IMG/VR virus record: IMGVR_UViG_3300044637_002122
DNA: 64,000 bases
Direction: 5' to 3' (one strand)
From: an uncultured virus (IMG/VR IMGVR_UViG_3300044637_002122)
Taxonomy: Duplodnaviria; Heunggongvirae; Uroviricota; Caudoviricetes
Shown: one piece after another, positions 1 through 28,919 of the stretch
How positions within the stretch are numbered: the stretch's first letter is position 1
Layout: the number at the start of each line of letters is the position of its first letter
Made by a program: the position numbers and the translations under genes
The notes under the pieces: model-generated
The model's input: only the letters and a program-made list of their open reading frames with translations
The model's database searches: none
What the model was told of the DNA's origin: nothing

Positions 1-3000
1 CCGGAAGCGGTGACCTTGCTGCGCTTGAACCAGGCCCTGAACTCCGGCGTCTCGGTGCGCGGGTCGCGCTCGCGGCTCAGCCGCGCATCGCCTGCCCCCG
101 ACTTATCAACCACCACCTTGGCCGGGAACGACTTTTTCCCAATGTGCTGCAGGGCGTCAAAGCGATGGGCGCCTTCAAGGATGTAATGGTCCTCGCCATC
201 AAACACCACGATCAGCGGCGCTATCTCGCCAGACTCCTCAATGTCTGCTGCCAGCTTGCGGGTGCGTGCCGTCTGGGGGTCTGGGCCGCTAAAGAGGTCA
301 AACGGAACTTCGCGGATCCCTGGCAGGACTTCGTAGTTAGTCAGGGACGCTTCAATGCTCCCATAGTTCGGCACGCCGTCACGCACAACGAGGCCATCAA
401 CTTTGTCGCCGGCCATTGGCAGGGCGATGGCCCTCTCGCGGCTGAACAGCGGCATGCCGCCGGAGGCCTTGTCGCGCATCTCGTCGGTGATGAGGAAGGC
501 CGGCGCGATGACGGGGTCGCTGTCGGCGATCTTGACCATCTCCGCCTTTGCCTCTGCCCTTGTCGCGTGGCCGGAGGAGACCTGCTCTCCGGTGGCGCGC
601 CAGATGACGGCATAGCCGCCATTGCCGTCGTCGCCAACGCGGTAAGAGTCGAGGGGCGTCGCGTCGGCGCCCGGCAGCGTGACCTTGGTCATCCCCTCCC
701 CGCCCATCTTCTTCACCAGCGCACTGGCGGCCTGGGGGACGATCTTGTCGTAGAAGGCCTTCATGCCTTCGCCGCCGACTTTGAGGTCGAGGCCGCGGTA
801 CGTGGCCGTCCATCGCTTGCCACGCTCGGCAACGATCTTCTTGGCGATCTCCTTTCCGACGTAGTCCTCCAGGCGGCCCTCGGGCACGTCGTCGGCGATC
901 TTTTGGGAGACGCCGTCGATTCGGTTTCGAGCTGTCAGGGAATACTTGTCATCTGACCTTGACCAGACGAGCTCGTCGACCTGCTTGCTCAGGTCATACC
1001 GATCCGCGCTCTGCTCCCCATTCACAAACGCCACCGCGTCGTAGCCTTCTGTGGCGGCCATCGCGATGACGCGCTTCAGGGCGAGGTTGAGCCACTTGGT
1101 GGTGTCGTCGATGAACGGCATGCGCGGCACGCCACCGCTGTTGATCTTCTTCTCGCGGACGATGTACTCGCGCGCAGCCTGCTCGCTGGCGTGCCGCGAC
1201 TTCGGGATCTGGAAGACGTTGTCGGGGGTCTTGAGGTAGTAGAAGGTGTCGGGCAGCGGTCCGTCGGTCGGCTGCACGTCTTCGAGCTTGTAGCTGTCGA
1301 TGAAGCCTTTCTTGCGAACATCGGCGCCTGCGTCGGACTGGAGCTCTTCCACGAACAACGTGCGCCGGCCCTCGGCATCAACTCGATCGTTAAGGCGGAC
1401 GTGGGCGAGGACGTTCTTCTGGTCCCAGTGGCTACTCCTGTAGCTGGCAGGCTCCGTGAACTGCATCATGGCGAGCAGAGAGCGAACGCCTGCGCGGGCC
1501 TCCTCCTCTGTGTCGCCAACGCCTCGCAGCTCGCGGCCGCCGGGCGTCTTGTAGGTGGCCTCAAAGTCGTATACGCCGGTGTCCTTGCGGCGAACCACGA
1601 TGTCCTTCTCGTAGGGCGAAAGGTCGCGCTTCGGCTCCGGCAGCGTCAGCAGCACCTCCCTGTAGGCAGTGCCGCCGGGGAGGGTGTATTGGCTAAAGTC
1701 GCTGACGCCGATGCTTTTGCCAACCGGGGATGTCACCTCCTCCACCCGCACCCCACCCTCTGCCAGGTACGCGCCGATCTCCTCCTTCGAGACCTTCTCC
1801 TTGCCCTTGAGCCTGAGGAAGTCTTCGATGCCGGACCAGGTGATCTCGTCCTGCTTCACGCCGAGCTTGCTGGCGTTGGCCTTGAGCCACTGGGCCCACT
1901 GCGGGGCGGCCATGTTGTCCAGGCGCGCGGGGACGCCTTCGATGGCGCGGGCGAGTTGGCTGTAGTACCAGGGGCGCTCGGTGGAGCGGATGATCTGCGG
2001 CCCTTCGTCGGCGTCATACAGCTCGAACGCCGGCACCGACGAGAGGCCAGCCCTCTTTGCCGCCTCGACGCGGTGATTGCCGTCAAGGATGTTGCCCTCG
2101 GAGTCGATGAAAATAGGCGGAATCTTGCTGTCAAATGGGCTCTCGTTAAACATGGCGACGACAAGCTCATCGACCCTGCCCTCGTCGACATCATTGCTTG
2201 GCTCTAGTGTGCCGACGTCGACCATTTCGTAGTCGCGCGTAAGTCTCTGGCCAAAATCAACGCCGAAGCTGGTTCTGAATTGCTCGCGCGCGCGACGCAA
2301 TGTGCTGTCAAGGTAGGCGCCGCCGAAGTTGGCGTCGCGCTCGGCGGAGCGGCGGATGTCCCGCCCCGCGTCGCCTTGGCTCAGCCCATCATCCCCGCGC
2401 ACCGTCAGAAGCGCAGGGTCGTCGAAGACGTACGACATCGACCAGCCGCCACCCGGCACAGGGTCTGGGAACGCGACCGCGTCGTAGCCCGCCGCGAACA
2501 GCTCGTCCATCAGGGCGTCTTGGAATCGGCTGTTGGCCCCGTACAGCTCTCCGGTTGCGCCGGTCACCGTCTCAAGGAAGGTGTCGAAGTCCTCGTACCC
2601 GTAGTCCTCGCCGATGTCGGCGAACACGCGGCGCAGCGCCTTGGTCTCGCGCGGGCCGATGTCTTCCGGGCCGAGCCAAAGCATGTTCTTGGGCTTGGCC
2701 TCAACGCGCATCAGCTTGTCGCCGTACTTGCGCGCGGTCTCCTCTTGGTCTGTTAGGTAGATGTGCTTCGCGGTGCGTGCTTTGGTCTTGTCGAACTGCT
2801 TGATTTCGACGTCGCTGCCGTGGTACAGGCGGATGGGCTCGCCGCCTGCGAGCTTGCGCTCTACGCTGCGGCGGATGTCGGGGTCGTTGGGGTCGAAGGT
2901 GCCGCGGTTGCCGGTGGCGCTCTTGATCTGCTCTGGGCGGAAGGCGACGTACTGATCCTGCACGCCACCAGCATCGTAGTGATTTTTCAGAATCACCCCA

Positions 3001-3797
3001 TCGTGGCCGCCATCGCGTGCGCGCTTGATCGCTGCAACGCGCCCTAGCCGGTCGCCCTTAAAGTCCACGACAAGCGGGTTCTGTAGCGACAGGAAAACCG
3101 GCATCACGCTGCCAATCTCGGGAGCGTTGAAGTTTCCTTCCGGATCAACGCCAGCGTAGGCAGCAGCCACAGCGGGGTCTGGAGAAAAGAAGATGCCGCG
3201 CTCGCCAGAAGCCTTGTTCAAGCCGGTCTTGAACGCATCAAAGTCCGCATTGGTCCCGTGGTACACAACCAGCGGCCTACCATCGGCGCCCACCACCTTG
3301 CTGTCGCCAAACCAGCGCTTGAACTCAGGCGTCTCCGTGACGTCGCGCGCGCGGCTAGCTCGGGCGCCGCCGCGTTCGTCGATCACCGGCACCAGCTTGA
3401 TGCCAAGCTCCTTGGCGGCCACCGCCCGATGCCTGCCATCCTCTTTGCCATCGCTGCGGATGTGCAGAGGGTCGAGCTTGCGCCCCGACAGGATGTGCTG
3501 CTTCAGGTCTTCGATGTTGTCGCGAGATGCGCCGTCGATGTCCAGCGGGCGCACGCTGGCCAAGAACTCGTCGGGAGACATCATCCGCGGCTTGATGCCG
3601 GTTTCTTCGTAGCGCTCGCCGGCCGGCGCCAGTGGGTACTGCAAATCACGCTCGGCGCTCGACCGCGCATCATTCGCCGCCCCCCGCAGGTACTCCAGCC
3701 CACCCGCCACGAGCCAGGCCTTGAAGGCCGCTTGGCCGGTAAGGACGGTCTTCTTGCCATCGGGGGCGGTGAAGCTGTAGGTGCAGGTCTGTGCCAT
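1..3797 (-). CDS. Giant polyvalent virion/ejection protein 2 (>1265 aa, runs off left edge): ParB-like / ART / ART / ParB-like / large conserved polyvalent-type domain / ParB-like / ART(start)
   Basis: Absent from the ORF track because no stop occurs in the window. Manual translation from ATG at 3797 (MAQTCTYSF...) stays open to base 1. ParB/Srx-like motifs: DGRHRAVAA, LDGNHRVEAA, LEGAHRFDAL. ART-PolyVal-like motifs: TPEFKRWFGDSKVV..PLVVYHGT..GIFFS..QNP..FRPEQIKS and LYHGS..HIYLT..GYDAV. Confidence 0.88.
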   Translation of the reverse strand, partial: MAQTCTYSFTAPDGKKTVLTGQAAFKAWLVAGGLEYLRGAANDARSSAERDLQYPLAPAGERYEETGIKPRMMSPDEFLASVRPLDIDGASRDNIEDLKQHILSGRKLDPLHIRSDGKEDGRHRAVAAKELGIKLVPVIDERGGARASRARDVTETPEFKRWFGDSKVVGADGRPLVVYHGTNADFDAFKTGLNKASGERGIFFSPDPAVAAAYAGVDPEGNFNAPEIGSVMPVFLSLQNPLVVDFKGDRLGRVAAIKRARDGGHDGVILKNHYDAGGVQDQYVAFRPEQIKSATGNRGTFDPNDPDIRRSVERKLAGGEPIRLYHGSDVEIKQFDKTKARTAKHIYLTDQEETARKYGDKLMRVEAKPKNMLWLGPEDIGPRETKALRRVFADIGEDYGYEDFDTFLETVTGATGELYGANSRFQDALMDELFAAGYDAVAFPDPVPGGGWSMSYVFDDPALLTVRGDDGLSQGDAGRDIRRSAERDANFGGAYLDSTLRRAREQFRTSFGVDFGQRLTRDYEMVDVGTLEPSNDVDEGRVDELVVAMFNESPFDSKIPPIFIDSEGNILDGNHRVEAAKRAGLSSVPAFELYDADEGPQIIRSTERPWYYSQLARAIEGVPARLDNMAAPQWAQWLKANASKLGVKQDEITWSGIEDFLRLKGKEKVSKEEIGAYLAEGGVRVEEVTSPVGKSIGVSDFSQYTLPGGTAYREVLLTLPEPKRDLSPYEKDIVVRRKDTGVYDFEATYKTPGGRELRGVGDTEEEARAGVRSLLAMMQFTEPASYRSSHWDQKNVLAHVRLNDRVDAEGRRTLFVEELQSDAGADVRKKGFIDSYKLEDVQPTDGPLPDTFYYLKTPDNVFQIPKSRHASEQAAREYIVREKKINSGGVPRMPFIDDTTKWLNLALKRVIAMAATEGYDAVAFVNGEQSADRYDLSKQVDELVWSRSDDKYSLTARNRIDGVSQKIADDVPEGRLEDYVGKEIAKKIVAERGKRWTATYRGLDLKVGGEGMKAFYDKIVPQAASALVKKMGGEGMTKVTLPGADATPLDSYRVGDDGNGGYAVIWRATGEQVSSGHATRAEAKAEMVKIADSDPVIAPAFLITDEMRDKASGGMPLFSRERAIALPMAGDKVDGLVVRDGVPNYGSIEASLTNYEVLPGIREVPFDLFSGPDPQTARTRKLAADIEESGEIAPLIVVFDGEDHYILEGAHRFDALQHIGKKSFPAKVVVDKSGAGDARLSRERDPRTETPEFRAWFKRSKVTAS

Positions 3798-3800
3798 GGA

Positions 3801-6800
3801 TTAGTCGCAGTTGATGCCCAGAACTTGTGACGTCTCAAGCTCGTCGAGGATGTCCAAGAAGTCGCGCTCGATCTCTTGGATTTTGGCCGAAAGCGGGTGC
3901 GCCGCGGCGGCCGCCTTTGCGGACTTGCGGGCCCCGGGAGAGCTGCGCATGTCTTCGAAGATCTTCACCAGGTCGGCGGGCGGCGAAGGCGGCGCAGACG
4001 GGCCTTGAACCGCATCCTCGGCGCGGCCCTCGGTCCAGGTCCAATCGGGCATGAGACCGGTCTTCTGATCGGCGAAGACCGTGTCCGCGACCTTGGCCGT
4101 GCGGTTCTTTTCGCCGTGGGGGCCGTAGTTCAAGAACGAATTCTGGCCGCGGGTCTCGCTGGTGATGGCGCCCACCGCGGGGCCCGTGAAGAGCCGGACG
4201 TGGGCCTGCCAGGCGTTTTCTTCTCCGTCGGCGCGGAAGCCGGCGCCCTCCAGGCCGTGACCGAAGGCGTCATGAACTGCCCTGAACAAATCGTTGACCA
4301 GCACGCGCTTCTTCTGGCCGTCCGGCGAGCCGAAGCCCCACTCCAGGCCGGCGTCGGCCAGTAGCGGGTTGGCCGCAGGGTCGAAGTCGCTCGTGCCGAA
4401 GCCGGCCGCGGTCGGGAAGACGGCCATGCGCTGGTTGGCGCGCAGGTCGCGCATCGCGTTCCACGGGTTGCCGGCGTACGGGTCGGCTTCCGGGTCCATG
4501 AACCAGAACTTGTAGCCCGCGCCCACCAGGGCGTCGTACTGCGCGCGCGTCTGCTGGATGAGGTCTTGGTACGCAGCCTTGACCGCGGGGTCTTGCGGCG
4601 CGTGCGGCATCGCGTCGTAGGCCTCGGCGATGCGCTTGGCGCGCTCGGGGTCGACCTTGACGTACTCCGCCTGGCGACGGAGCTGGATGCCCCTGCTGGC
4701 GGCGTACCGCTCGGCTACTTCGACGAGTCGCGGGTCGGGGCCGGTTGCGCCTGCGATAGACGGCGCGCCCGCAAGCGGCGCAAGGCTTCGGCCCTCATCC
4801 CCTCGCTCTCCGTCTCGGGCTCGGCTGCGGCGCGCAGAGGCGCCGGCACGCCGGCCAGAATCTCCGCCGTCAGCCGCGGAATCCCCTGCGGGTACTCCAT
4901 CCGCAGCCAGGTCTCCATCGTCAGCGGCCGGTTCATCTTCAACATACGCGCCAGGGTCGCGTCCCGCCCAGCTAGGGGCTTCAATGCCTCCAGCAAGTTC
5001 GAGGACTTGTTTTCGGGCGTTTTCATAACTCAGGCGTCCTTTCTGGAATTGGGTCCACACGCCGTCGACTGCTTCGACGTTGCGCCGCTGGGCCTTGAAG
5101 GTGGGCACGAACAGGCCGCGCACAGCCTCCCAGGCGATCGACTGCATCTCACGCGGCAGGATGCCACGCTCTGCGGCTGCGCGGCGGTAGGCTTCCTCGT
5201 AGAGTGCGTACGTCCCTTCGAGGCCTGCGTGCGCGCTCTTCGGGCCGCCGAAGTTGTGCATCACCTCGATCGAATTGCCAGAAAGCGGTCGCAGCAGCGC
5301 GGCCGCCACAGCGTGCGTGTCGATCGTGACGTGCCCGTTCGGGCTGTTCGGCACGAGGATGTTGTTGTAGAAGTTGCGAACCTTGTGCTTGCGGCCAAGC
5401 TGCGCGCTGATGTTCTCAAACGACCCGTTGTCGAAGACAGAGACAGCCTTCGCGATGGTGCTGTTGCCGCCCCACGCGACGCGGCCGAGCGTGCCGTCCT
5501 TCGTGCGCGCCTCGGCCACGAAGTCACCCTCCGGCGAGACGATGTAGAACGAACTCGGGTTGTGAGCCTGGTCGTAGACGCGGAGCCACATCGCGCGCAG
5601 GTAGGCGTCATCAAGGTCCTGCAGCGTCTGGCCGCGGATCGCGTCGATGTCCTCCTGGTAGGCCTCTTTGCCGAAGATCCTGGCGGAGGTCTCGTCCATC
5701 TGCTTCGACCAGCGGAAGGCCTGCCGGTCGGTCATGATGTCCGCTACGCGGTTGGCCAGGCTCACATTCATGAACCAGTCCTTCTGCGGACTCAGCACGG
5801 CCAGGATGCCGGCAGCCTGCGCGTCGCTGATGCTGTACTTACGAGACCAGCGCTCGGCGATCGCCCTGGCGCCGTCGTACCACAGCTTGCTGCGGTTGCG
5901 CGTGTCGGCTGGCACCTGGTCGTGCAGCCACAGCAGGTTCTCGACCATCTGGCGAACCGTGCGCTCGAGCTTCTTCTCGGGCGCGTTGGCGGTCGCGGCG
6001 GCGCGGTAGTTCGGGTAGCCTTCGACCAGCTCCGACACGGCTGAGAGCCACTTGCTCTGGCCAAGGCCCGAGGCAAAGTCGCTGATCAGCAGGTCGCGTC
6101 GAGAGTCTTCTGGCGCGAAGTCCTTCGTCGGCTTGGCGTACGGCTCGCGCGTGCTGACTTCAAATCCGTGCACACGCTCACGCGGCTCGCGCGCAACGCT
6201 GCGCGTGATGTCCGGATCGGTGGCGTCGAAGGTGCCGCGGTTAAAGACGGACTTAATCTGCTCGGGGCGGAATGCGAGGTATGTGACTCGCCCCCCTCCC
6301 TCATTTGCGATCACTCCGTCGTACCCGAGCGGGCTCAGCTGCTCTTCAGTCGAAAGCCCTGGCCGGTCATTGTTGGCCTGAGCCATGATGGCCCTGCCCT
6401 CCGGCGTGTTCACGTCGAGAGGGTTTTGCAGCGCGAGGTAGACGGGGTAGACGGTGTCCCCTCGTCCGCCGCCGCCCTCCTCGGCAAATTGACTAGCCAG
6501 CCCTGGGGACTCAGAGAACCAGCCGGCCCCATCAACTCCCCGCCTGAAACTTCGGATGTTTGGAGAGCCGCTGCCGTGGTACACCGCCAGAGGCCGGCCC
6601 CGGCTGTCCGCCACCTTCGAGTTGCCGAACCAGCGCTTGAACTCGGGCGCCTCAGTTACGTCGCGAACAGCGCTGCGGCGGATGTCATCCTCATCGGCGC
6701 TGTACGTGCTGTCGTTGAAGTCGGCGCTCTTGACCTGGTTGGGCTCGAAAGCCACGAAGACGTCGGATGCCTCGTACCAGCCGCCGCCGCCACCGCCATC

Positions 6801-9800
6801 GTCCGTCACCTGGCGAATGATGGCGCCGTCGTTCTTGCTGCGACGAGCTTCGCGCACCACGCTGTCAGTGGTCTCGTAGTGATCCTGGGCCGGCTCGATG
6901 TTGCCGCCCTTGCTCATTACCAGAGAAAAGGCGTCGTCGCGGTCTTCGAAGTAGCCGCGGCCGTCGTCGGCGTAGAGCTGCTCGCCGTCGTCGTCGACGA
7001 CCATGTACTGGCCGTTGCGGCTGCCGTCCCAGTTGGCGCCCTCGAAGTCAGACTCTTGCGGGTTGCGGATGTTGATGAAGAGGGCGTAGATGCCAGCCAC
7101 CGGGTCGCGATACTCGCCGTCCTCCTCGATGTCGCCAGGGCCAATGTCGCGCGCGCGGCCGCGGTGCACGTATGTGCGCGCCACGCCTCGCTCGTCAGTC
7201 GTGAAGATGCCAAGGTCTCCGCGCTGGCTTCCGCCGGGCCGCGAGAACTCGCTGAAGCCGCCCTTGTCGGTGCCGTGGTAAACGACCAGCGGCTCGCCGT
7301 TGCGGCCGACGACCTTGGAGACCTCGCCCTTGTCGTCGGCCCAGACCCCGCCTCGGCGGCCGGCGAACTTCTCAAAGTCGCCAAACCACTTCTTGAAGCT
7401 CGGCGTACGAACGTGCAGCCACTGGCGTTCAGTCAAGCGCGTAGCGGTGCCGTCTGGCGCCTTGAGCCACTTGTCGGTGCCCTCGTACTGCTTGCGCACC
7501 GCGGCCACCTCTTCGGCCGGCGTCGACAGGCGCTCCTTGCTGAAGCGCAGGTCGGAGCCGATGCGCGCCATCTCGGCGTTGGCCTGTTCGCGGCTGTCGG
7601 CCGGGAAGCGCAGCATGCCCGCGCGCAGCGTGGCGCCAGGGATGTTGCCCACATCGATGAGGTCGATCTCCTTCGAGCTCGGAGCGGCCTTGATGGTCTC
7701 GGGCACACCGGTCGAGATCGGGCCGGCGATCTTCGGGTTCGCGATGGGCTTGGCCGGCATGCTCTTGGCCGCGTCGCCGATGACGACCGCGAAGCCCTGC
7801 CCGGTCTCGTGCTTCTTGACAAAGTAGCCCGCGTAGCCGGCATCGAGGATGCGGCTCTCGGTGCCGTTCAGGTCGCCGCTGTTCCAGAGCTTCTCGGCGT
7901 TGGCCTTGGCGTCGTAGAGCTTCGGCAGCTCGACCTCGTGCGCGTAGCCGCCGACGCCAGCCTCGGGGCGCACGCCATTGCCCTCGTCCACGTAGAAGTA
8001 GACGCGGGTCTTGAGGCGCGGGTCATCGCTCAGCGCCAGGCGCTCGGCCTCGAGGCCCTTCAGGCCGGTGCCGTAGTAGGCGCCGTTGATGGCGGTGAGC
8101 TGCTTCTTGCTGAAGTGGATGCCGCGCTCGGGGGACTTGGTGACCTCACTGTCGTCCACGGGCGTGACATGACTGCCATCCGGCACCACGACAGAGATAC
8201 TGCCGCTGTCTTCAGCGACATTGCTGTAGTAGTAGCCGCGACGAGCCGTTCCGCGCTTCTTGGCTGCGGACATGTACCCATTGGCCTTGAAGTCCTCATG
8301 CGGCTGGAACTTGAAATTCGACATCTCAGTGTTGAGTCTGAAAGGGCGAACACTGGGGCGAACGCTCATTGGCATTGGCGTGCCGTCGGCATACTTCAAC
8401 TCAACTTGCGGCAGGTAGTCTTCATCCGGGACCGGGTTGCCTCGCGAACCGGCGTTTAGGCCGGTGGTCAGGAAGTAGCCGCGCTCCTCTTGCAGGCGCT
8501 TGAGCGTCTTCTTTCCAGCCAGAAGGGTTGACCCATACTCTCGGGCGCCGTCCCACTCTCCGGTCGCTGGAACTCCAATTCGAGCCTCTAGCGCCTGCGT
8601 TGCGGCGAGCTTGGTTCCAAGGTGAAGGCCAGTTGAACCGCCCCTTAAGTCGCCGCTTGGAGACCCGTGCCAATAAATCGTTTTGTCGTCGGTCTTTCGG
8701 GCCGGACTCATGGACACGCCATTTACCGAGCGCAGCACCTCCGCCTGCATCCCGGCCTTCGACTTGCCGCTCTCCTTGAGGTAAGCCGCCAGGCCGTCGC
8801 GGTAGGCCGCCCTGATGGCATCCATGTCGCTGATGAAGCGGTCTGCGCGGAAGCGCGGGCCCTTCACTGCGGCCACGGCCATGTCGATCAGGCCCTGCAG
8901 CTGCGCGATCAGGCGGGCGATGGTGCCCTTGGCGTCCTTGCCGTTGTCGGCATAGATTTTTGCGAATACTTCGCGCCAGAAGGACTGATCGGCCATCAAG
9001 TTGCCGCCGAGGTCGGAGACCAGCTCCTCGAGCTCGCCGTCGCGCTCTTCGCTCAGCGCACCGTCGCCGCGGGCATCGGCCTCTTCGGCGCCGTAGTAGT
9101 CGCGGCGGAAGCCCTTGGGGTTCTTCACGCGCGTCTTCACGACAGCCGCGATGGCGTCCCAGGCCTGCGGGTTGGTCTGGCGCAGCGTGTGCAGGAACTC
9201 GTGCCCGAAGACGGACAGCGGGTTGATCGTCGACACCGTGTTCAGGTAGATGGTGTCGGGGTCGGCTGGCCTCACGAAGCCGTCGCCCGGGCGCTCGCCG
9301 TTGACGTCTTCGAAGAACTGCACGCGCTTGCCCATCGCCGCGCCGATGGCGCTGATGAGTGCTGCGGACTTGCGGCTGATGCGGCGGGCCTTGCCATCGC
9401 GCTCGGGCGATTCGGTCTCGGCGAGCTGCGACACGTCGGCCCGCTTGAACTCGACGTTCTTGCCGTCCATGCGGACGGTGAAGGTGGTGCCAGGCGCGCG
9501 GTCGGGATCGACGGAAAGTGCCGGCGTTACGCCGGCTTGATTAGCGCCTGACGCAACTCCATCCCCTTGTCCAGGCGCTTCCGCAGCGTATCGGGATGAA
9601 TCCCCACCTTGCGCGCCCACGCCTTGAGTGGAAGCGTCTCGCCGTCCAGAGTTAGGTTGCGCGGAGGCGCCCCCCGAGGCATCAAGCCGGGCTCGAGGGC
9701 TTCGCTCGCCGAAAGGCCCTGCTGCACCCTCTTGTAGATCCGACCGGCCGGAATTCCCAGCTCGCGAGCCCACTCCGCCAATGTCATCGTCTTGCCGCGG

Positions 9801-12800
9801 TGCGTCAGCGCGTGCACGAAGCCCGGCCTGTTCTGACTCTGCTCCATCCTGGTTGCCCAGCGTACGTTGCCCGGCTCGTACCCTTTGTCCCCCTTGATTC
9901 GATCCAGGGAGTGCGCCGGAGTCGGCCTCGGCCCCGCGTCCCGCAGAAACGCCGCGAAGCTCTCCGCCCACTCCTCGTTCATCTTGATCCCCTTCGCCCC
10001 GTACTCCCGGTACGCCTGGTCCTTGGGATCTGCGCAGCGACTTCTCGCCTTTCGCCAGTTGTTGTACCCCGGCGTCCGGGATATTCCGCGCTCGCGCATC
10101 AATTACTCCTGCTGGCTTCTTGGCTGCATCCGACCGAGCCCACGACTTGAACTCGTCGACAGACATCTGCGTCACATCGCCCCGGCGGCGCGGCCCGGAT
10201 CCGTCGGAGAAGTGCGCGTCGTAGATGCGGATGGCCTCGTCTCGACTTTGAGCGCCGACGACCGATTTGGTTTCATCGAACGTGCCGTCATCGTTGTATT
10301 GATCGATGACAAACACCGGGGCGCCGGCCGTCGGCGATGCGTGCAAGTAGATGTCCACGCCGTCGCCATCGGCGCCAAGGGTTCGGCGGATATAGCCGTA
10401 GTGGGCCTTCATGCGAACGGACCACTTCTTGCCGCCGCGGTCCGTGCCGCTTCGAACGCTGCCCTCGGGGTTCTCGATGGCGATGTCCAGTCCATCGAAC
10501 CGAAGCATGCCGAGTTTGTAGTTACCGGCCGCCTTCTGCGCCGGCGTCGGCTCCTTGCGGTCGTTCTGCGGGCTCGTGGCCGCGGCATGCGCGCGCGCGT
10601 CGACCATGGCCTTGACCGCGGCGCGCGCCAGGGCGGCATCGGCGCGGCCGCTCAGGCGGACCTCGTCGCCGGTTCGCGAATTGCGAATGAAGAACACGCC
10701 GTCGCGGCGCTCGACGGTCTCGTAGCCCTGGTCGGCCAGGGCGTCGAGCTGGCGGCGGCGCTTGCGGATGACTGCGGGTTCGGCTGGGCTGCCGGCTTCA
10801 CTGCGCGGCGCAGTTTCAGCAGGTGCTGAAGAGGCGCGCTCAGCTGACTTGGTGGCCGCAGACGGCTGCCGGCGCATGATGGCGGCACCATCGTCCCTGC
10901 CGACGGTGCGGAACCCGAGCGACTCGTAGAAGCGCTCAAGGCGCGCGTCATCAGAGAAGCCTGTGGCGTCGAACGCCATCAGCTCAACCGGCAGGCCGGC
11001 CTCGTCTGCACGCGCAAGCAGGGACTGCATGGCGCGCCGGAAGGCGCCGCGGCCGCGGCTCTCGGGGCGGACGGCCGCGTCGTTGATCGTCACCTTGTCG
11101 TCGAGCACGTTGTACTCGATGGTGGCGCCGTCTTGCTCAAGCGTGTTGGTCTCACCTTCGCGCCACGGCGCCCTCTCGGCTGACCGACGAGGCTCCCGCA
11201 TCTGCTGCAGCTGCAGCTTGTCGGTGGCGCTCAGGTTGGCCGGGTTGACCGCAGCGTCCTGCAGAACGCGCATCTGCTCGGCGGTCATGCGCGCCCGGGC
11301 GGCGTCGACCACGGCCTTCTGCTCGGCGGTGCGCAGCGCGGGGATGGTCTTCAGCGCGGCGATCACGTCGTCGGCCGGCGGCGCGCCGGCGGGCGCCTTG
11401 GGCTGCGCCTGGTCGCGCTTGGCGGCCGCGGCGGCGCGCTCTTCGGCCAGGCGCTTCATGCGGCTGTCGCTGCGGGCCTGCTGCTCGGCGGCGGCCTGGG
11501 CGGCGACGTCCTGCCGGCCCGGCACCACCGTCTCGCGCGGCCGGCGGCCCAGGGCGATGCCCGTGGCCTGCGTCAGGCGCTCGTCGGTGGACGGCGGCGG
11601 CGCCAGGCTCTCGTCGATGCGGTCGTAGGGCTTGCCCAGGCCGGCCTCGGCGAAGATCTGCGCCTCGGCCGGGCTGGCCACGCCGCCGCGCTCCTCGACG
11701 TTGCGCAGGGCGCGGTCGATCACGGCCTGGCGCGGTTCGTCCTGGCGTTTGCTGGCATCGACCTGGCCACCAAGGGCGGCGGCCTCGAGGCGCGCCTGCT
11801 CGGCCGGCGTTACAGCCTGAGGCCTGTTCTCGCCGCCGACAGCCTGTGCGCTGTTGGCCGGCCTGGCGCCGAGGCGCATCTCCAGGTTCGTCTTGCGCTG
11901 GGCGTTAATCTGGTCGCGCTCGAACTGGGTGCCGGCCTGCTGGGCGCGCGCCGTCAGGGCTGCGTCGCGATCCACGCCGGTGCGGAGCTGGCCGATGCCA
12001 GGGCGCGCGCCAGGCTGGCGCACATCGCCCTGCGTGGCGCCGGTGATCTCGTCGATGTTCGGCTCGACCGTGGGCGCCGGGTTCGCGCCGGCCCACTGCA
12101 GGCCGGTCTCGATGCGGGTCAGGGCCTGCTCGCGCGCGGTCGGCTGGGCGCTCTTGCTGGAGGCGACGGCCAGGTCCTTGAGCAGGTCCTTCGCGGTGTA
12201 GTCGGAGCCCTCGGCGCGCAGGGCGTCGAGCACGCCCGGGTTGAGGGCGGACTTGATGGCGGCGAGGCGCGGGGCGATCTCGTCGGGCTGGGCGCCCGGC
12301 GTGGCCTCGCGCGAAGCATTGAGCGCCTCGTACTCCTTGCGCTGCTCGGGCGTGAAGATGCCGCCCTGCTGGCCGATGGCCTCAAGCTCGGCTAGGCGGG
12401 CGGCTGGGTCGGGCGGGGCCACGGGCGCCACAGGCGGAGACGCCGCCGTGCCAGCGACGGCCGACTTCGACAGCGGGCTGTTGGGCTCCTGAGCCTTCTG
12501 GATGACGGGGGCCATCTCGGGCGACTGCAGCGCCCCGGCGACGGCGCCGACGCCAGCGCCGCCAACGAAGCCCATGGTCGCCGCTCCGGCAGCGCCCTTG
12601 GTCGAGTCGATCTCGGGGTTGTACTGCGCCGCGGCGCGCTGGCCCTCGATGACGGTGGCCGCCTCTTCGACGGCTTCGGTGCTGCCCTCGATGCCGCCGG
12701 TGGCGAGCGCGTTGCCGACGCGGGTGCGGCCGGCGCCAGGCAGGCCGGCCAGCAGGCGCTCGGCGCCGATGACGCCGGTGGCGGCGCCAAGGATCGCTGG

Positions 12801-13970
12801 CAGCACGCGCGCCTGGGCGGCCGCCTTCTGGGCGATGGCCTCCTTGATCTGGGCCGGATCGGTGATCCCCTGGCGGATCAGCTGCTGAGCATCGGGGCTC
12901 TGCAGAATGACGTCGTCCGGGGACTTCATGACCAGCTCGTAGGCTGTGCCGGCTGCGTCGCCGCCGCCCATGGTTGCGCCGGCCACCGCGCCGCCCGCCA
13001 GGCCAGCTCTTGCAGCCCCGCGCGCGCCGACACCAACCGCCTGCGCAAAGCTCGACGCGCCCTTGACGGCCGCGCCGGGCAGCACAAAGGAGCCGGCAAC
13101 CTGGGCCGCTGTCAGCGCCGGGTTGCGCGCCATGTAGCCGAGCATCGTGGTGACCTCGGCGCTGGCGTCCGGGGCGGCCTCCATGTCGGCAGCCAGGCGC
13201 TCCTTCTCGGCGCGCACGACGTCGCTCTGCTTCTCGACGCCGGACTGGATGAACTCTTCAACGGCCTGAGAGAACTGATTGCCGGGCGAGACGAAGCTGC
13301 CAACCGCGCCGGCGGCACCGGCCACAGCGTTGCCGAACTCGATGACCGTGTCGTTGATGGCCTCGAATACGCCGCGGCTTCGCGTGGGCGCCGGCGGCCG
13401 CGGATCGAGCATCTCGCTGCGCGGGCCGCCGAACCTGCTGGTCGGCTGCTGCGGCGGTGCTGCGGCAAGACTGCCGCCCATCGCGGTCGCGGCCATCCTG
13501 GCGGCCGCAACGCCCTTGTTGACGTAGTCCGGGTCTTCCGCGTAGCCGCCCTTCTTGAGCTCGGCGAAGTACCGGCCTGCGTCAGAGCCAGATCCGGCCG
13601 CCGTGCGGTAGCGCCTTGCGATCAGGCCCGCGAAGTCCTCCCCGAAGCTGTCCGGCGACTCGTAGGCCCGGTACGCGTCGCGCGACCCGGTCATGTTGTC
13701 GGTGGCCTGCGGGCCGGCGCCGGTGAAGTCCTTGATGTTGCCCAGGTTGTTCGTGCCCGGGATGACGCTGCGCCCCCAGCCCGTCTCAAGCCCCCACTGC
13801 CCCAGCAGCACCGCCGGCTCGACGCCGATCTTGCCGCCGACGCGCTGCGCCACGGGGCCGTACTGCTGCACGAATCCCTCGACGCCGCCGGCCTGGGAGG
13901 CGGGACGCGGTTGCGATGCACCAAGCTCTTTGGCGGACTCGGCGATCAGGCTCAGGATGGGATCTTGCAT
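3801..13970 (-). CDS. Giant polyvalent virion/ejection protein 1 (3389 aa): GH73/FlgJ-like glucosaminidase, Gly/Ala-rich membrane segment, GNAT, InPase, zincin metallopeptidase, 4 ART-like domains, HhH-glycosylase-like domain, HDxxGH domain
   Basis: N-terminal QWGLETGWG..NNLGNIK..GGYAEDPDY (GH73). RPESRGRG..RFYESLGF (GNAT). AGNYKLG..IAIENPEGSVRSG..HYGYIRRTLGADGDGVD (InPase). HEFLH at 9189-9203 with downstream EELVSD (zincin). WHGS, GIHFS, YHGT, YHGS (ART-like). WYDGA..AVLSPQKDW..KVRNFYNN..VTIDTH..MQSIAWE. NDLFRAVHDAFGH..GEENAW..ETRGQNS. Lies directly after the ejection-protein genes. Confidence 0.9.
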   Translation of the reverse strand: MQDPILSLIAESAKELGASQPRPASQAGGVEGFVQQYGPVAQRVGGKIGVEPAVLLGQWGLETGWGRSVIPGTNNLGNIKDFTGAGPQATDNMTGSRDAYRAYESPDSFGEDFAGLIARRYRTAAGSGSDAGRYFAELKKGGYAEDPDYVNKGVAAARMAATAMGGSLAAAPPQQPTSRFGGPRSEMLDPRPPAPTRSRGVFEAINDTVIEFGNAVAGAAGAVGSFVSPGNQFSQAVEEFIQSGVEKQSDVVRAEKERLAADMEAAPDASAEVTTMLGYMARNPALTAAQVAGSFVLPGAAVKGASSFAQAVGVGARGAARAGLAGGAVAGATMGGGDAAGTAYELVMKSPDDVILQSPDAQQLIRQGITDPAQIKEAIAQKAAAQARVLPAILGAATGVIGAERLLAGLPGAGRTRVGNALATGGIEGSTEAVEEAATVIEGQRAAAQYNPEIDSTKGAAGAATMGFVGGAGVGAVAGALQSPEMAPVIQKAQEPNSPLSKSAVAGTAASPPVAPVAPPDPAARLAELEAIGQQGGIFTPEQRKEYEALNASREATPGAQPDEIAPRLAAIKSALNPGVLDALRAEGSDYTAKDLLKDLAVASSKSAQPTAREQALTRIETGLQWAGANPAPTVEPNIDEITGATQGDVRQPGARPGIGQLRTGVDRDAALTARAQQAGTQFERDQINAQRKTNLEMRLGARPANSAQAVGGENRPQAVTPAEQARLEAAALGGQVDASKRQDEPRQAVIDRALRNVEERGGVASPAEAQIFAEAGLGKPYDRIDESLAPPPSTDERLTQATGIALGRRPRETVVPGRQDVAAQAAAEQQARSDSRMKRLAEERAAAAAKRDQAQPKAPAGAPPADDVIAALKTIPALRTAEQKAVVDAARARMTAEQMRVLQDAAVNPANLSATDKLQLQQMREPRRSAERAPWREGETNTLEQDGATIEYNVLDDKVTINDAAVRPESRGRGAFRRAMQSLLARADEAGLPVELMAFDATGFSDDARLERFYESLGFRTVGRDDGAAIMRRQPSAATKSAERASSAPAETAPRSEAGSPAEPAVIRKRRRQLDALADQGYETVERRDGVFFIRNSRTGDEVRLSGRADAALARAAVKAMVDARAHAAATSPQNDRKEPTPAQKAAGNYKLGMLRFDGLDIAIENPEGSVRSGTDRGGKKWSVRMKAHYGYIRRTLGADGDGVDIYLHASPTAGAPVFVIDQYNDDGTFDETKSVVGAQSRDEAIRIYDAHFSDGSGPRRRGDVTQMSVDEFKSWARSDAAKKPAGVIDARARNIPDAGVQQLAKGEKSLRRSQGPGVPGVRGEGDQDERGVGGELRGVSAGRGAEADSGALPGSNQGGQRVRAGQRTLGNQDGAESEQAGLRARADAPRQDDDIGGVGSRAGNSGRSDLQEGAAGPFGERSPRARLDASGGASAQPNSGRRDASTQGVGAQGGDSSRYAAEAPGQGDGVASGANQAGVTPALSVDPDRAPGTTFTVRMDGKNVEFKRADVSQLAETESPERDGKARRISRKSAALISAIGAAMGKRVQFFEDVNGERPGDGFVRPADPDTIYLNTVSTINPLSVFGHEFLHTLRQTNPQAWDAIAAVVKTRVKNPKGFRRDYYGAEEADARGDGALSEERDGELEELVSDLGGNLMADQSFWREVFAKIYADNGKDAKGTIARLIAQLQGLIDMAVAAVKGPRFRADRFISDMDAIRAAYRDGLAAYLKESGKSKAGMQAEVLRSVNGVSMSPARKTDDKTIYWHGSPSGDLRGGSTGLHLGTKLAATQALEARIGVPATGEWDGAREYGSTLLAGKKTLKRLQEERGYFLTTGLNAGSRGNPVPDEDYLPQVELKYADGTPMPMSVRPSVRPFRLNTEMSNFKFQPHEDFKANGYMSAAKKRGTARRGYYYSNVAEDSGSISVVVPDGSHVTPVDDSEVTKSPERGIHFSKKQLTAINGAYYGTGLKGLEAERLALSDDPRLKTRVYFYVDEGNGVRPEAGVGGYAHEVELPKLYDAKANAEKLWNSGDLNGTESRILDAGYAGYFVKKHETGQGFAVVIGDAAKSMPAKPIANPKIAGPISTGVPETIKAAPSSKEIDLIDVGNIPGATLRAGMLRFPADSREQANAEMARIGSDLRFSKERLSTPAEEVAAVRKQYEGTDKWLKAPDGTATRLTERQWLHVRTPSFKKWFGDFEKFAGRRGGVWADDKGEVSKVVGRNGEPLVVYHGTDKGGFSEFSRPGGSQRGDLGIFTTDERGVARTYVHRGRARDIGPGDIEEDGEYRDPVAGIYALFINIRNPQESDFEGANWDGSRNGQYMVVDDDGEQLYADDGRGYFEDRDDAFSLVMSKGGNIEPAQDHYETTDSVVREARRSKNDGAIIRQVTDDGGGGGGWYEASDVFVAFEPNQVKSADFNDSTYSADEDDIRRSAVRDVTEAPEFKRWFGNSKVADSRGRPLAVYHGSGSPNIRSFRRGVDGAGWFSESPGLASQFAEEGGGGRGDTVYPVYLALQNPLDVNTPEGRAIMAQANNDRPGLSTEEQLSPLGYDGVIANEGGGRVTYLAFRPEQIKSVFNRGTFDATDPDITRSVAREPRERVHGFEVSTREPYAKPTKDFAPEDSRRDLLISDFASGLGQSKWLSAVSELVEGYPNYRAAATANAPEKKLERTVRQMVENLLWLHDQVPADTRNRSKLWYDGARAIAERWSRKYSISDAQAAGILAVLSPQKDWFMNVSLANRVADIMTDRQAFRWSKQMDETSARIFGKEAYQEDIDAIRGQTLQDLDDAYLRAMWLRVYDQAHNPSSFYIVSPEGDFVAEARTKDGTLGRVAWGGNSTIAKAVSVFDNGSFENISAQLGRKHKVRNFYNNILVPNSPNGHVTIDTHAVAAALLRPLSGNSIEVMHNFGGPKSAHAGLEGTYALYEEAYRRAAAERGILPREMQSIAWEAVRGLFVPTFKAQRRNVEAVDGVWTQFQKGRLSYENARKQVLELAGGIEAPSWAGRDPGAYVEDEPAADDGDLAADGVPAGDSAADGGDSGRRAGASARRSRARDGERGDEGRSLAPLAGAPSIAGATGPDPRLVEVAERYAASRGIQLRRQAEYVKVDPERAKRIAEAYDAMPHAPQDPAVKAAYQDLIQQTRAQYDALVGAGYKFWFMDPEADPYAGNPWNAMRDLRANQRMAVFPTAAGFGTSDFDPAANPLLADAGLEWGFGSPDGQKKRVLVNDLFRAVHDAFGHGLEGAGFRADGEENAWQAHVRLFTGPAVGAITSETRGQNSFLNYGPHGEKNRTAKVADTVFADQKTGLMPDWTWTEGRAEDAVQGPSAPPSPPADLVKIFEDMRSSPGARKSAKAAAAAHPLSAKIQEIERDFLDILDELETSQVLGINCD
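4715..5026 (-). CDS. Small protein (103 aa) nested in the +1 frame of the giant ORF
   Basis: AAAGGA lies 10 nt upstream of the ATG. The sequence is protein-like and amphipathic (LARMLKMNRPLTMETWLRMEYPQGIPRLTAEILAGVPAPLR), while the host frame here reads as a D/G/A/R low-complexity linker. Confidence 0.55.
   Translation of the reverse strand: MKTPENKSSNLLEALKPLAGRDATLARMLKMNRPLTMETWLRMEYPQGIPRLTAEILAGVPAPLRAAAEPETESEGMRAEALRRLRARRLSQAQPAPTRDSSK
9527..10099 (-). CDS. HNH-type homing endonuclease with two C-terminal HTH-like repeats, nested in the +1 frame of the giant ORF
   Basis: AGGAG (10106-10110), 6 nt, then ATG at 10099. Motifs WRKARSRC..YGAKGI..EW..SFAAF..D.GPRP..SLDRI..GYEPGNVRWAT..Q..N are typical of phage HNH endonucleases; followed by repeated TLAEWARELGI / PLKAWARKVGI modules. 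Confidence 0.85.
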   Translation of the reverse strand: MRERGISRTPGYNNWRKARSRCADPKDQAYREYGAKGIKMNEEWAESFAAFLRDAGPRPTPAHSLDRIKGDKGYEPGNVRWATRMEQSQNRPGFVHALTHRGKTMTLAEWARELGIPAGRIYKRVQQGLSASEALEPGLMPRGAPPRNLTLDGETLPLKAWARKVGIHPDTLRKRLDKGMELRQALIKPA

Positions 13971-27495: not shown

Positions 27496-27963
27496 TCAGA
27501 TCGTGCAGCCGGCGTGACGCCGTCGCTTCTCGCTCAGGTACGCCGCATAAGCAAGCTCAGCGGTGTCGAAATAGCCGATGTGATGCCTCTTCTTGTCGTA
27601 CGTGATTTGCGCCCTGAACTTGTTGCGCGACTTGTGGAGAGAAACACCAAGCAGACCGGCGGACTTGTTGTTCGACTGCGCCTTCTTTGCGTTCTGTTGG
27701 TTCGTCGAGCGATCGACGTCCCTTAGATTGCAGATCCGGTTGTCCGCCTTGTTGCCGTTGATGTGGTCAATCTCGCCTTCTGGCCACTTGCCGTACATCA
27801 GTCTCCAAGCCAGACGGTGCGCCGAGTAGACGCGGCCACCAACCTTGACTCGAACCCTGCCCTCCGGATCGATCCAGGTGCTCTGTTGACCGAACGGGCC
27901 GGAGATGAATCCGGTATCCTGGTCGTACACCAAGTCCTCTAGCCGGATGGCGACTGTTGCCAT
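27496..27963 (-). CDS. Free-standing HNH endonuclease with AP2-like DNA-binding domain
   Basis: AHRLAW..GKWPEGEIDHINGNKADNRICNLR..NQQN; GLLGVSLHK..FRAQI..HIGYFDTAELAYAAY; TGATG coupling to the scaffold gene. Confidence 0.92.
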   Translation of the reverse strand: MATVAIRLEDLVYDQDTGFISGPFGQQSTWIDPEGRVRVKVGGRVYSAHRLAWRLMYGKWPEGEIDHINGNKADNRICNLRDVDRSTNQQNAKKAQSNNKSAGLLGVSLHKSRNKFRAQITYDKKRHHIGYFDTAELAYAAYLSEKRRRHAGCTI

Positions 27964-28919
27964 CAGAACGCCTCCCACGCACCCTCGAAGTCGTCCTTCG
28001 GGGCCGCGGGCTTTTCTGGCAGGCGCACGCCACCAGAGCGCACGCCTTCCATGCTTTGCAGGTCCTCGTCGACGGCGGCGCCAGTGTCCTCTTGCGAGGG
28101 CTGGGCGGCCGCGGCGGGGGCCTGCTTCTTGCCGGCCGTCTCCTTGAAGACGTCCAGCAGATCGATCACCTCCTCGGCCGTGCCGCCCTGGGCGACGTTC
28201 TGCGCATCGGCGCGAACGTCATCGGGCAGGCCATCCAGGAAGGCCTTGAAGTCGGGCGACTGCGCGACGTCGCGGAAGTCGGGGTGACGCGCGGCGATCG
28301 CGGTGAAGTGGGCCCGCTCCGCCGTGCTGTTGAACTTCGTGTCCAGCTCGTCAGCTTTCTTGGCGACGGGCTCGACCTCCTCTTTGGCGAAGGCCTTGGC
28401 CAACACCTTGATCATGCCGATGAACTCGTTGCCGAAGTCCTCGGACAACTGGGCCATCGCCTGCTCCGGAGTCATCTCTCCGGACTCCACGGCCTCCGCG
28501 GCCGCGTTGGCGGCCTGGGCCAGATCCTCGGACCCGCCGACGGCCGCAGCTCCGGCGACGCCCTCGAGCATCTCCGACGCCTCCTCGGCGTCCTGCCCGG
28601 CTGCCGGCTTCGCGGCCTTGCCGCTGATCTCGGCCTCTCGAGCCCTCAGTCGCCCCTCCCAGGAGCGCAGCTTCTGGGCTTGCTGCTCGAGCGCCTCGGG
28701 TGAGAGCTCGGGGCCGGCCGCCGGTGCTGCGGCAGCAGGCGCGACAGCGGCCTCCTCGCCGGCCGGCTGAGCGACCTCGCCGTCTCCAAGCTCGCCACCA
28801 TCCGCGGCGTCGGCGGCGCCGGCGGCATCGCCCGCTCCGGCGCCAAGGCCCGGGGCGTCCTCGCCCTCGTTGAAGGCGGCGGCGAACTCGGGGTCGATCT
28901 CTTCGATTTCGGGATCCAT
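27963..28919 (-). CDS. Capsid scaffolding protein (318 aa)
   Basis: Acidic and Ala-rich; HF.AI..RHPDF..SPDF..FL; C-terminal DDFEGAWEAF; between portal and MCP; GAGAGGA SD. Confidence 0.75.
   Translation of the reverse strand: MDPEIEEIDPEFAAAFNEGEDAPGLGAGAGDAAGAADAADGGELGDGEVAQPAGEEAAVAPAAAAPAAGPELSPEALEQQAQKLRSWEGRLRAREAEISGKAAKPAAGQDAEEASEMLEGVAGAAAVGGSEDLAQAANAAAEAVESGEMTPEQAMAQLSEDFGNEFIGMIKVLAKAFAKEEVEPVAKKADELDTKFNSTAERAHFTAIAARHPDFRDVAQSPDFKAFLDGLPDDVRADAQNVAQGGTAEEVIDLLDVFKETAGKKQAPAAAAQPSQEDTGAAVDEDLQSMEGVRSGGVRLPEKPAAPKDDFEGAWEAF

Follow-up and report, generated by a model that had tools for sequence, protein, structure and literature searches.

A conserved sequence tag marks the module junctions of a putative split ejection protein in an uncultured virus

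Introduction

Polyvalent proteins of phages combine unrelated effector domains, such as ART-PolyVal, InPase, GNAT, ParB-like and LPD38 domains, in one giant polypeptide together with an embedded HExxH peptidase, and it has been proposed that they are delivered with the DNA and that the zincin-like peptidase then releases the domains by autoproteolysis (Iyer et al., 2017; PMC5512222). Such proteins are probably the earliest weapons that reach the cell with an incoming phage or plasmid, and the activation of chains of ten or more enzymes has been a hypothesis since 2017. Here we describe two adjoining giant genes with this kind of domain content on a 64,000-nt stretch of DNA from an uncultured virus (IMG/VR record IMGVR_UViG_3300044637_002122), whose products carry a short sequence tag, built around S-x-x-R, at the junctions between their modules. 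The whole stretch is referred to as the window, and all feature coordinates count from its position 1.

T7 gp16 is the large ejection protein of a short-tailed phage. The proteins phi24B gp47 (10.64898/2026.04.10.717836) and SU10 gp20-24 (PMC9509320) share with the window proteins a place in the virion module, an N-terminal peptidoglycan hydrolase and a C-terminal LPD38 region. phi24B gp47 carries a peptidase domain and was detected in virions by mass spectrometry (10.64898/2026.04.10.717836), and both it and SU10 gp20-24 (PMC9509320) have been shown to be carried in the virion and released when the phage infects. MARTX toxins are alike in outline, with conserved delivery ends, central exchangeable effectors and a protease that processes the inter-effector regions in cis (PMC6315884). 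Statements on these published systems refer to the passages of the cited papers covered here.

Results

A tag at the module junctions of two giant proteins

The tag is real, conserved and specific to junctions, a conclusion that we hold with near certainty. It was found in the products of two giant genes:

3801-13970 (-): gene 1, 3389 amino acids; putative ejection-protein N-terminal half and nine modules (open reading frame, translation and Pfam)
3-3797 (-): gene 2, first 1265 of 2299 amino acids; continues past the window start

A first-pass annotation had listed 14 copies of the motif S-x-[E/A/V]-R at domain boundaries of these proteins, and all of them are present where it placed them and in frame. 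In total, S-x-[EAV]-R matches 20 times (12 in gene 1 and 8 in gene 2) against 6.4 matches in shuffled sequences (Poisson p = 1.2e-5), and S-x-E-R matches 13 times against 1.74 (Poisson p = 4e-8). The six matches outside the earlier list read SRAR, SWAR, SPER, SEER, SVVR and SGER. SRAR at 4815-4826 forms an additional junction, which separates DUF7178 from the gene 1 C-terminal domain; it divides the final segment of this gene, to which two domains had been assigned, so that there, too, each interval holds a single module. SWAR is found at 10134-10145, where the InPase ends. The other four (SPER 9399, SEER 9042, SVVR 6852 and SGER 3198) are interior to modules, so that the caveat that a pattern this short also occurs off boundaries applies to 4 of the 20 matches.

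The tags number 15 in the window, with one more in the remainder of gene 2. Read from the N-terminus of gene 1 towards the window start, modules and tags are arranged as follows:

13509-13856 (-): Glucosaminidase (peptidoglycan hydrolase), residues 39-154; Pfam 4.4e-16; FlgJ-like in NCBIfam, below cut-off
11172-11183 (-): tag RRSAER, upstream flank of the GNAT cassette; cassette hot spot; rare TCA Ser codon, as in the other flank
10851-11168 (-): GNAT cassette, residues 935-1040; Pfam Acetyltransf_1 at 950-1020; absent here in P0005 and P0013
10836-10847 (-): tag TKSAER, downstream flank of the GNAT cassette
10137-10541 (-): InPase, residues 1144-1278; Pfam 3.3e-46
8712-9533 (-): zincin-like domain, residues 1480-1753; HEFLH at 9189-9203, ExxxD at 9012-9026
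8697-8708 (-): tag VSMSPAR, immediately after the zincin-like domain; homologues here read AE[IV]LKSxxR
8136-8696 (-): module without known family, residues 1759-1945; no Pfam match
8124-8135 (-): tag VTKSPER; 76 alignment starts at most 15 residues away
7542-8123 (-): 'GIHFSK' module, no family assigned; kept in 63 homologue segments
7530-7541 (-): tag DLRFSKER; Ser and Arg+3 in 50/50 aligned homologues
6675-7529 (-): ART-PolyVal module a; Pfam 3.7e-18
6663-6674 (-): tag DIRRSAVR; Ser 45/49, Arg+3 48/49, Arg-2 50/50, Asp-4 50/50
6201-6662 (-): ART-PolyVal module b; Pfam, residues 2455-2577
6189-6200 (-): tag DITRSVAR; 97 alignment ends at most 15 residues away
4827-6188 (-): DUF7178 module; Pfam 1.5e-28
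4815-4826 (-): tag ARRSRAR; family consensus RRSxxR ahead of the gene 1 C-terminal domain
3804-4814 (-): gene 1 C-terminal domain and tail of ~45 amino acids ending INCD; tblastn matches in many phage records; phrog_3170
3660-3797 (-): gene 2 leader, 46 amino acids with a conserved Cys, then the first tag
3648-3659 (-): tag ARSSAER; in homologues the tag after the leader, e.g. GQIRKSADR
3345-3356 (-): tag ARASRAR, between ParB-like 1 and ART c; 59 + 185 alignment starts nearby
2856-2867 (-): tag DIRRSVER, between ART c and ART d
2337-2348 (-): tag DIRRSAER, between ART d and ParB-like 2; ART d Pfam 4.2e-9, hhalign 96.7% to ART c
1974-1985 (-): tag QIIRSTER, ahead of the large conserved domain
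444-1973 (-): large conserved domain, ~510 amino acids, no family assigned; no Pfam match; preceded by a tag 63 times in homologues
432-443 (-): tag PLFSRER, after the large domain; homologues share a GxPLFSRxR ending
66-77 (-): tag ARLSRER, between ParB-like 3 and the last ART; ParB_N Pfam 29.7 bits

A boundary map independent of the motif was derived from 119 homologues with shuffled modules: the points at which their BLAST alignments start or stop define end-point zones that cover 15.7% of the residues. Enrichment of the motif at boundaries over background, which the first-pass annotation had proposed as a check, was found: 12 of the 20 matches fall in these zones (p = 8e-6), as do 10 of the 14 copies listed earlier (p = 5e-6). 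The four listed sites lacking end-point support (residue 930 of gene 1 and residues 47, 484 and 1241 of gene 2) sit between modules named by Pfam or PHROGs, and few homologues cover them.

Selection on the tag acts at the protein level and not on the DNA, as had been suggested from the use of both Ser codon families. The 15 junction copies encode the Ser by AGC (9 copies), AGT (1), TCA (2) and TCC (3), and their mean DNA identity of 0.492 compares with 0.480 +/- 0.013 under synonymous resampling. In a six-frame scan of the window, in-frame copies scoring 14 or more were confined to the two giant genes.

EVLRS, 7 residues upstream of the VSMSPAR tag, is the ancestral copy of that tag. The stretch at 9534-10100, between InPase and zincin-like domain, encodes ~190 amino acids rich in G, R, S, D, Q and A, and no homologue alignment starts or ends inside it. 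The ~510-amino-acid domain (444-1973) opens with a motif that resembles PWYYSQLARAIE. The C-terminal domain of gene 1 (3804-4814) is present in many phages, including ~200 Mycobacterium phage records, where it is variously annotated as lysin, RelA/SpoT or glycosylase. Sequence searches of the PDB with ART plus junction, with the gene 1 C-terminal domain and with the large domain returned nothing useful, and neither did searches of the modules without assigned family against Pfam and PHROGs.

Refined consensus and conservation in relatives

An iterated weight matrix built on 121 proteins gave the consensus D(-4) [IV](-3) [RKT](-2) [KRF](-1) S(0) x x R(+3), in which position +2 is taken by A, E or D about equally. 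The S-x-[E/A/V]-R motif proposed at first is a real tag at junctions; its E/A/V place at +2 is free and its consensus is longer than had been described. With the module map and shuffles as controls, stringent searches returned 641 hits in 233 homologous giant proteins, a number that shows consistency and not independent discovery because part of this family had served to train the matrix. Module interiors account for 47.1% of the residues but for only 47 of these hits (7%); the remaining 93% are outside interiors, and at least nine module types flank the tags. Among the gene-2-like proteins (n = 112), 251 hits compare with 4 in shuffles.

The expectation that the motif would be kept in homologous giant proteins was also borne out residue by residue. 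At two orthologous junctions in an alignment of 50 sequences, which share 33-62% identity, the Ser is present in 50/50 and 45/49 and the Arg at +3 in 50/50 and 48/49, both near invariant, and positions +1, +2 and +4 vary. Three further junctions in this alignment are not orthologous and were uninformative. The five residues from the Ser onward are 6% hydrophobic against a background of 27.6%.

The tag was also searched for in six other phage giants, with 0 hits in MW202722, Octadecabacter BD1, Pag-Yong1 and cr271, 1 hit in DC33 and 2 in Dfl-JY45. A universal link between zincin and tag was dropped on account of these counts.

A cassette hot spot at the GNAT site

One junction is a cassette hot spot. 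In the relatives P0005 and P0013, the site holds a single tag and no insert, and in the window protein the GNAT is located between RRSAER and TKSAER. P0004 carries a different insert of ~110 amino acids between ARNSG and NKSAER, of which the upstream ARNSG lacks the Arg, and P0006 carries a third insert between ARRSTPR and ARRSTVR. Because the inserts of relatives come and go between tag-like flanks, the tag can be regarded as a standard flank for cassettes, in agreement with the earlier description of it as a plug: the site is either empty with one tag or filled by one of three different inserts. Both GNAT flanks use TCA for the Ser, a codon that accounts for 12 of the 279 Ser codons in the two genes.

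The zincin-like domain and the spacing of the Arg

The HEFLH sequence that had been read at 9189-9203 is present. In homologues, HExxH is intact in 95/95 aligned segments, and an ExxxD is conserved ~55 residues downstream (E in 94/101, D in 95/102), the Glu of which is a candidate for the third zinc ligand, going by the thermolysin-type pattern. This putative peptidase with its conserved catalytic motif is located just upstream of the module array. With respect to it, 333 tags lie downstream and 11 upstream, and in several clades a tag follows it directly, including one that reads NARFSDAR.

The spacing between Ser and Arg was compared among 106 representatives selected solely on their zincin, in a search that covered 1.84 billion proteins and gave 567 hits. 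The pattern [RKT][FYKRLH]S..R occurs 233 times in them against 53.8 expected; the spacings S-R (43 vs 55.8), S-x-R (60 vs 52.6) and S-x-x-x-R (56 vs 55.8) are not enriched. Six relatives (P0031, P0032, P0045, P0063, P0072 and P0074) show S-x-R 26 times against 5.1 expected, and S-x-x-R 5 times against 4.75. The zincins of these S-x-R relatives read TIAHEFKH in four cases and TIGHELAH in P0072, whereas a search of P0074 for HExxH found none. No enrichment of the Arg was seen in ART-rich proteins that lack these zincins. Group-specific Arg spacing of this kind is what co-evolution of a protease with its site would look like.

ART modules and the origin of the tag

Seven ART-like modules had been named in the first-pass annotation, five of which are recognised by Pfam. 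The other two are unsupported as ARTs: the module at 8136-8696 has no Pfam match, an hhalign probability below 1% and a weak Atlas lead (0.90-0.91), and the one at 7542-8123 has no Pfam match, 6-12% in hhalign and a weak Atlas lead (0.89).

The first half of the tag is the tail of the ART-PolyVal domain (GxFDxxNPDI-x-x). Of 120 short stand-alone ARTs retrieved, 95 carry this tail, and 20 of the 95 stop exactly at -1, which is the commonest end. At the ends of ARTs, S-x-x-R was found in 103/144 cases in window-type zincin proteins, in 142/293 in gene-2-like proteins and in 5/139 in other ART-rich giants. Since 310 of the 641 tags follow an ART, part of the tag signal is inherited with the ART module. 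Several stand-alone ARTs (P0236-P0355) pass position -1 and carry the Ser, followed by a shared ...RERAR end, for example after DIRFS or ICMS; this shared tail is a second C-terminal motif of short ARTs.

Layout and context of the two giant genes

The stop codon of gene 1 is followed, after three bases only, by the gene 2 start codon ATG. An identical copy of gene 2, complete at 2299 amino acids, is found on the virus record G001, from which the remainder of gene 2 outside the window was read as an ART, one last tag and an LPD38 C-terminal region. Pfam recognised Glucosaminidase (39-154), GNAT (950-1020), InPase (1144-1278), two ART-PolyVal domains and DUF7178 in gene 1, and three ART-PolyVal stretches, ParB_N and LPD38 (residues 1999-2188) in full-length gene 2. 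Each polypeptide accordingly combines several unrelated catalytic or DNA-binding domains, with ART-PolyVal present five times over both genes, as is characteristic of polyvalent proteins. An N-terminal peptidoglycan hydrolase (gene 1) and a C-terminal LPD38 (gene 2, via G001) correspond to the architecture of LPD38-type ejection proteins.

Upstream on the same (-) strand lie virion genes, namely those for portal, a 329-amino-acid open reading frame (ORF), an HNH endonuclease, a major head protein, an SU10-type adaptor, an internal virion protein and a tail fibre. The giant genes thus stand downstream of virion genes, and their copy on an IMG/VR virus record likewise places them in a mobile-element and delivery context. 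One giant gene occupies the equivalent place in the related phages MW202722 and Octadecabacter BD1, which by the gene order of T7 is the place of T7 gp16. Relatives in which the gene pair is fused into a single gene also occur, e.g. P0040. Because of the virion-gene neighbourhood, the T7 gp16-like place in relatives and such fused relatives, the gene pair is predicted to be the split ejection protein of a short-tailed phage, with a lysozyme-bearing N-half, an LPD38 C-half and ~16 modules between. The earlier suggestion that the giant proteins are injected is consistent with this virion gene module and with the hallmarks of ejection proteins (hydrolase and LPD38).

Gene 2 and its relatives open with a leader of 45-60 amino acids, followed by a tag. 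The gene 1 tail (3801-3935) and the 46-amino-acid leader of gene 2 (3660-3797) each contain a conserved Cys, and they come in matched classes: tails of the type INC[DE] pair with leaders M..xCxYxF...GGLEYLR, and tails of the type L[IL]xCL[KQR]K pair with leaders ..NCLQIV, ..GCMSVV or ..ACMKVV. The classes match in 15/15 pairs, where the members of a pair are presumed, from equal lengths of their longest contigs, to share a contig, and the fused single-gene relatives are without both elements. Tail and leader look like a docking pair that would join the two halves.

Protease families were looked for among the window ORFs, including the stretch from portal to capsid, and none was found; no prohead protease was recognised in the head module. 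A megablast search of the window against phage records returned no match. When genome contigs were searched for hosts, the zincin alone had no match and the zincin alignment had one weak match in Streptomyces. The names assigned to homologues suggest Burkholderiales as hosts, for instance Polynucleobacter and Polaromonas.

Further observations concern the record G001 and other genes of the window. G001 is otherwise 99.99-100% identical to the window, with ~58 bases absent at 10079-10130, where the low-complexity stretch behind the InPase begins; this gap splits gene 1 of G001 into ORFs of 1461 and 2094 amino acids and may be a deletion or an assembly error. The HNH endonuclease gene (27496-27978 (-); phrog_99, 2.2e-52) is located in the head module between the 329-amino-acid ORF that follows the portal and the major head protein gene. 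A 778-amino-acid ORF (46758-49094 (-)) has a weak Intein_splicing match at residues 128-345 (6.4e-5, 23 bits, cut-off 35.8) and also a weak match to a helicase PHROG, and may be an intein-bearing replication gene. Beside the portal gene, ORFs of 1256 amino acids (34368-38138 (-)) and 660 amino acids (32378-34360 (-)) are without PHROG match, and Ig-like (He_PIG) repeats in the latter are the sole Pfam find for this pair.

Discussion

A proposed processing mechanism

We propose that the products of both genes would each supply one half of a protein packaged in the phage head and then ejected. Gene 1 would contribute the cell-wall hydrolase, a long N-terminal region, the InPase and the zincin-like domain, and the end of gene 2 the LPD38 region. 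Between these ends, about 16 exchangeable modules (ARTs, ParB-like, GNAT, DUF7178 and modules without assigned family) would be lined up with a tag at every boundary, the first half of the tag probably being the natural C-terminus of the upstream module, and S-x-x-R the opening of a short hydrophilic linker. Once delivered, the polyprotein may then be processed at the tags to yield individual effectors, with the zincin upstream of the array cutting the gene 1 product in cis and the gene 2 product in trans. The cut would probably fall between -1 and the Ser. The protease of MARTX toxins, by comparison, prefers cutting after Leu.

As judged from sequence and distribution, the tag most likely marks processing sites. 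That the resident zincin is the enzyme that cleaves there is a serious candidate explanation which we would still place somewhat short of probable; it is suggested because the tags lie downstream of the zincin, because the Arg spacing differs by zincin group and because stand-alone ARTs commonly end at -1. The full model goes further, and we put it forward as possible but on balance doubtful: a modular delivery platform, in which a tag-flanked cassette is packed, injected and freed by the zincin, an Arg code of +1, +2 or +3 co-evolves with the protease and is private to a group, and Cys-bearing ends hold the two halves together until delivery.

Several observations weigh against this proposal. 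The giants of MW202722 and Octadecabacter BD1 share HExxH domains, ART, DUF7178 and the C-terminal domain, yet they are without the tag. The DIRFS half is an old ART-PolyVal tail that also terminates 55/139 ART ends in the class of other ART-rich giants, which lack this zincin, and an ART precedes about half of all tags (310/641). N4 vRNAP, ArdC and TraC1 carry such peptidases and are delivered uncut, and the peptidase may attack host proteins instead (PMC5512222). The zincin-like domain itself has no sequence match in the PDB, and its residues 1490-1760 have no Pfam or PHROG match at E <= 1 and E <= 0.01. P0128 combines a window-like zincin (VFGHELTH) with S-R spacing (7 vs 0.73 expected), and the association of Arg spacing with zincin type depends on perhaps three or four lineages, with descent as a confounder.

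Alternative explanations

A possible, though on balance doubtful, alternative is that the tag is an uncut connector, composed of the end of the upstream fold and an S-x-x-R spacer that serves separation, solubility or DNA contact, and that it recurs as cassettes move together with their ends. This would fit the DIxx part terminating stand-alone ARTs, a tail older than this clade, the basic residues at -2, -1 and +3, the ART preceding 310 of the 641 tags, and the delivery of related peptidase-bearing proteins as a whole (PMC5512222). What a connector leaves unexplained is the invariant Ser and the Arg at an exact distance from it amid freely varying neighbours, the identical tag behind nine unrelated module types including zincin, 46-amino-acid leader and ParB, and the single enriched spacing in each group.

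Cleavage of the tag by another protease, either a host enzyme encountered upon ejection or a phage enzyme whose gene lies beyond the window, with the zincin acting as an anti-host effector, appears rather unlikely. Proteases that prefer basic residues exist, and the dibasic R-[KR] ahead of the Ser in many copies would suit them; the evidence for a site is moreover the same as under cleavage by the zincin. The window is probably part of a genome of ~80 kb, as G001 measures 37.7 kb at 45% completeness and contigs with homologues measure 78-86 kb, and an effector role for the peptidase is allowed in the literature (PMC5512222). Against a second protease speak the lack of any protease family among the window ORFs, including those from portal to capsid, the distribution of tags around the zincin (333 downstream, 11 upstream) and the variation of the Arg spacing with zincin group.

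We give still less credence to the tag as a modification site, where, for instance, the neighbouring ARTs would auto-ADP-ribosylate the Arg or a kinase would phosphorylate the Ser. Invariant residues of these two kinds typically accept modifications, and half of the tags follow an ART. Polyvalent proteins can also include kinases (PMC5512222); however, Pfam found no kinase domain in the two proteins, and tags also follow zincin, ParB, DUF7178, leader and large domain.

Practically no weight can be given to a reading of the repeats as sites of DNA recombination, or as a pattern that recurs by chance in a protein rich in Arg and Ala: the pattern is short, with 4 of 20 matches inside domains, and the rare codon TCA is shared by both GNAT flanks, but as general accounts a DNA site is refuted by a DNA identity at the synonymous expectation (0.492 vs 0.480 +/- 0.013) and the use of four Ser codons, and chance by the enrichment (p = 1.2e-5 and 4e-8), with scan hits of 14 or more only in the giant genes and in frame, and with conservation in relatives at 33-62% identity.

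Implications

Returning to the tag as a processing site, a defined sequence makes the activation of such enzyme chains experimentally addressable. The tag also supplies a sequence rule for dividing giant metagenomic proteins into modules, and this rule exposes modules such as 'GIHFSK', the ~510-amino-acid domain and the C-terminal domain of gene 1, which are without assigned family. A private cleavage code, if that is what the tag represents, would account for the easy gain and loss of cassettes in such arrays; if the tag is part of a co-evolved grammar, cassettes would be freely swappable inside a group and the cut signal would be private to that group. Such a system could then serve phage engineering as a natural scaffold that delivers several proteins together.

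Comparison with known systems

Among head-protein processing sites, T4 gp21 cuts after L/I-x-E and gp175 of phiKZ-like phages after S/A/G-x-E. With these systems, the proteins described here share short linear trimming sites on packaged proteins and leader peptides that are removed or, in our case, may be removed. The T4 and phiKZ-like sites differ in having Glu at P1 and an assemblin-like prohead protease, whereas here +2 is free (A, E or D) and no such protease was found in the head module. A T4- or phiKZ-type prohead-protease site was rejected as an account of the tag, as +2 is not restricted to Glu and the stretch from portal to capsid gene encodes no recognised protease.

The MARTX toxins differ in their cysteine protease, which is activated by inositol hexakisphosphate (InsP6), and in their eukaryotic target cell, and they have no sequence relation to the window proteins (PMC6315884). 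For phi24B gp47 and SU10 gp20-24, the covered passages of the two papers report neither processing nor a junction tag, and the proteins described here differ in their split into two genes and in a far larger effector array (10.64898/2026.04.10.717836; PMC9509320). In the literature searched, which extends to passages of the main text of PMC5512222 and not to its supplementary alignments, no junction motif was found for polyvalent proteins; the passages of that paper covered here contain none, and in the paper 'linker' occurs 0 times and 'junction' in 2 places outside these passages. Unlike the polyvalent proteins described there, those of the window have a defined junction tag, a group-specific Arg spacing and an array placed in the middle of a putative split ejection protein (PMC5512222). 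Polyvalent proteins with an embedded peptidase were already known; new here are the tag as a defined sequence, an Arg spacing specific to each group and a hot spot for cassettes.

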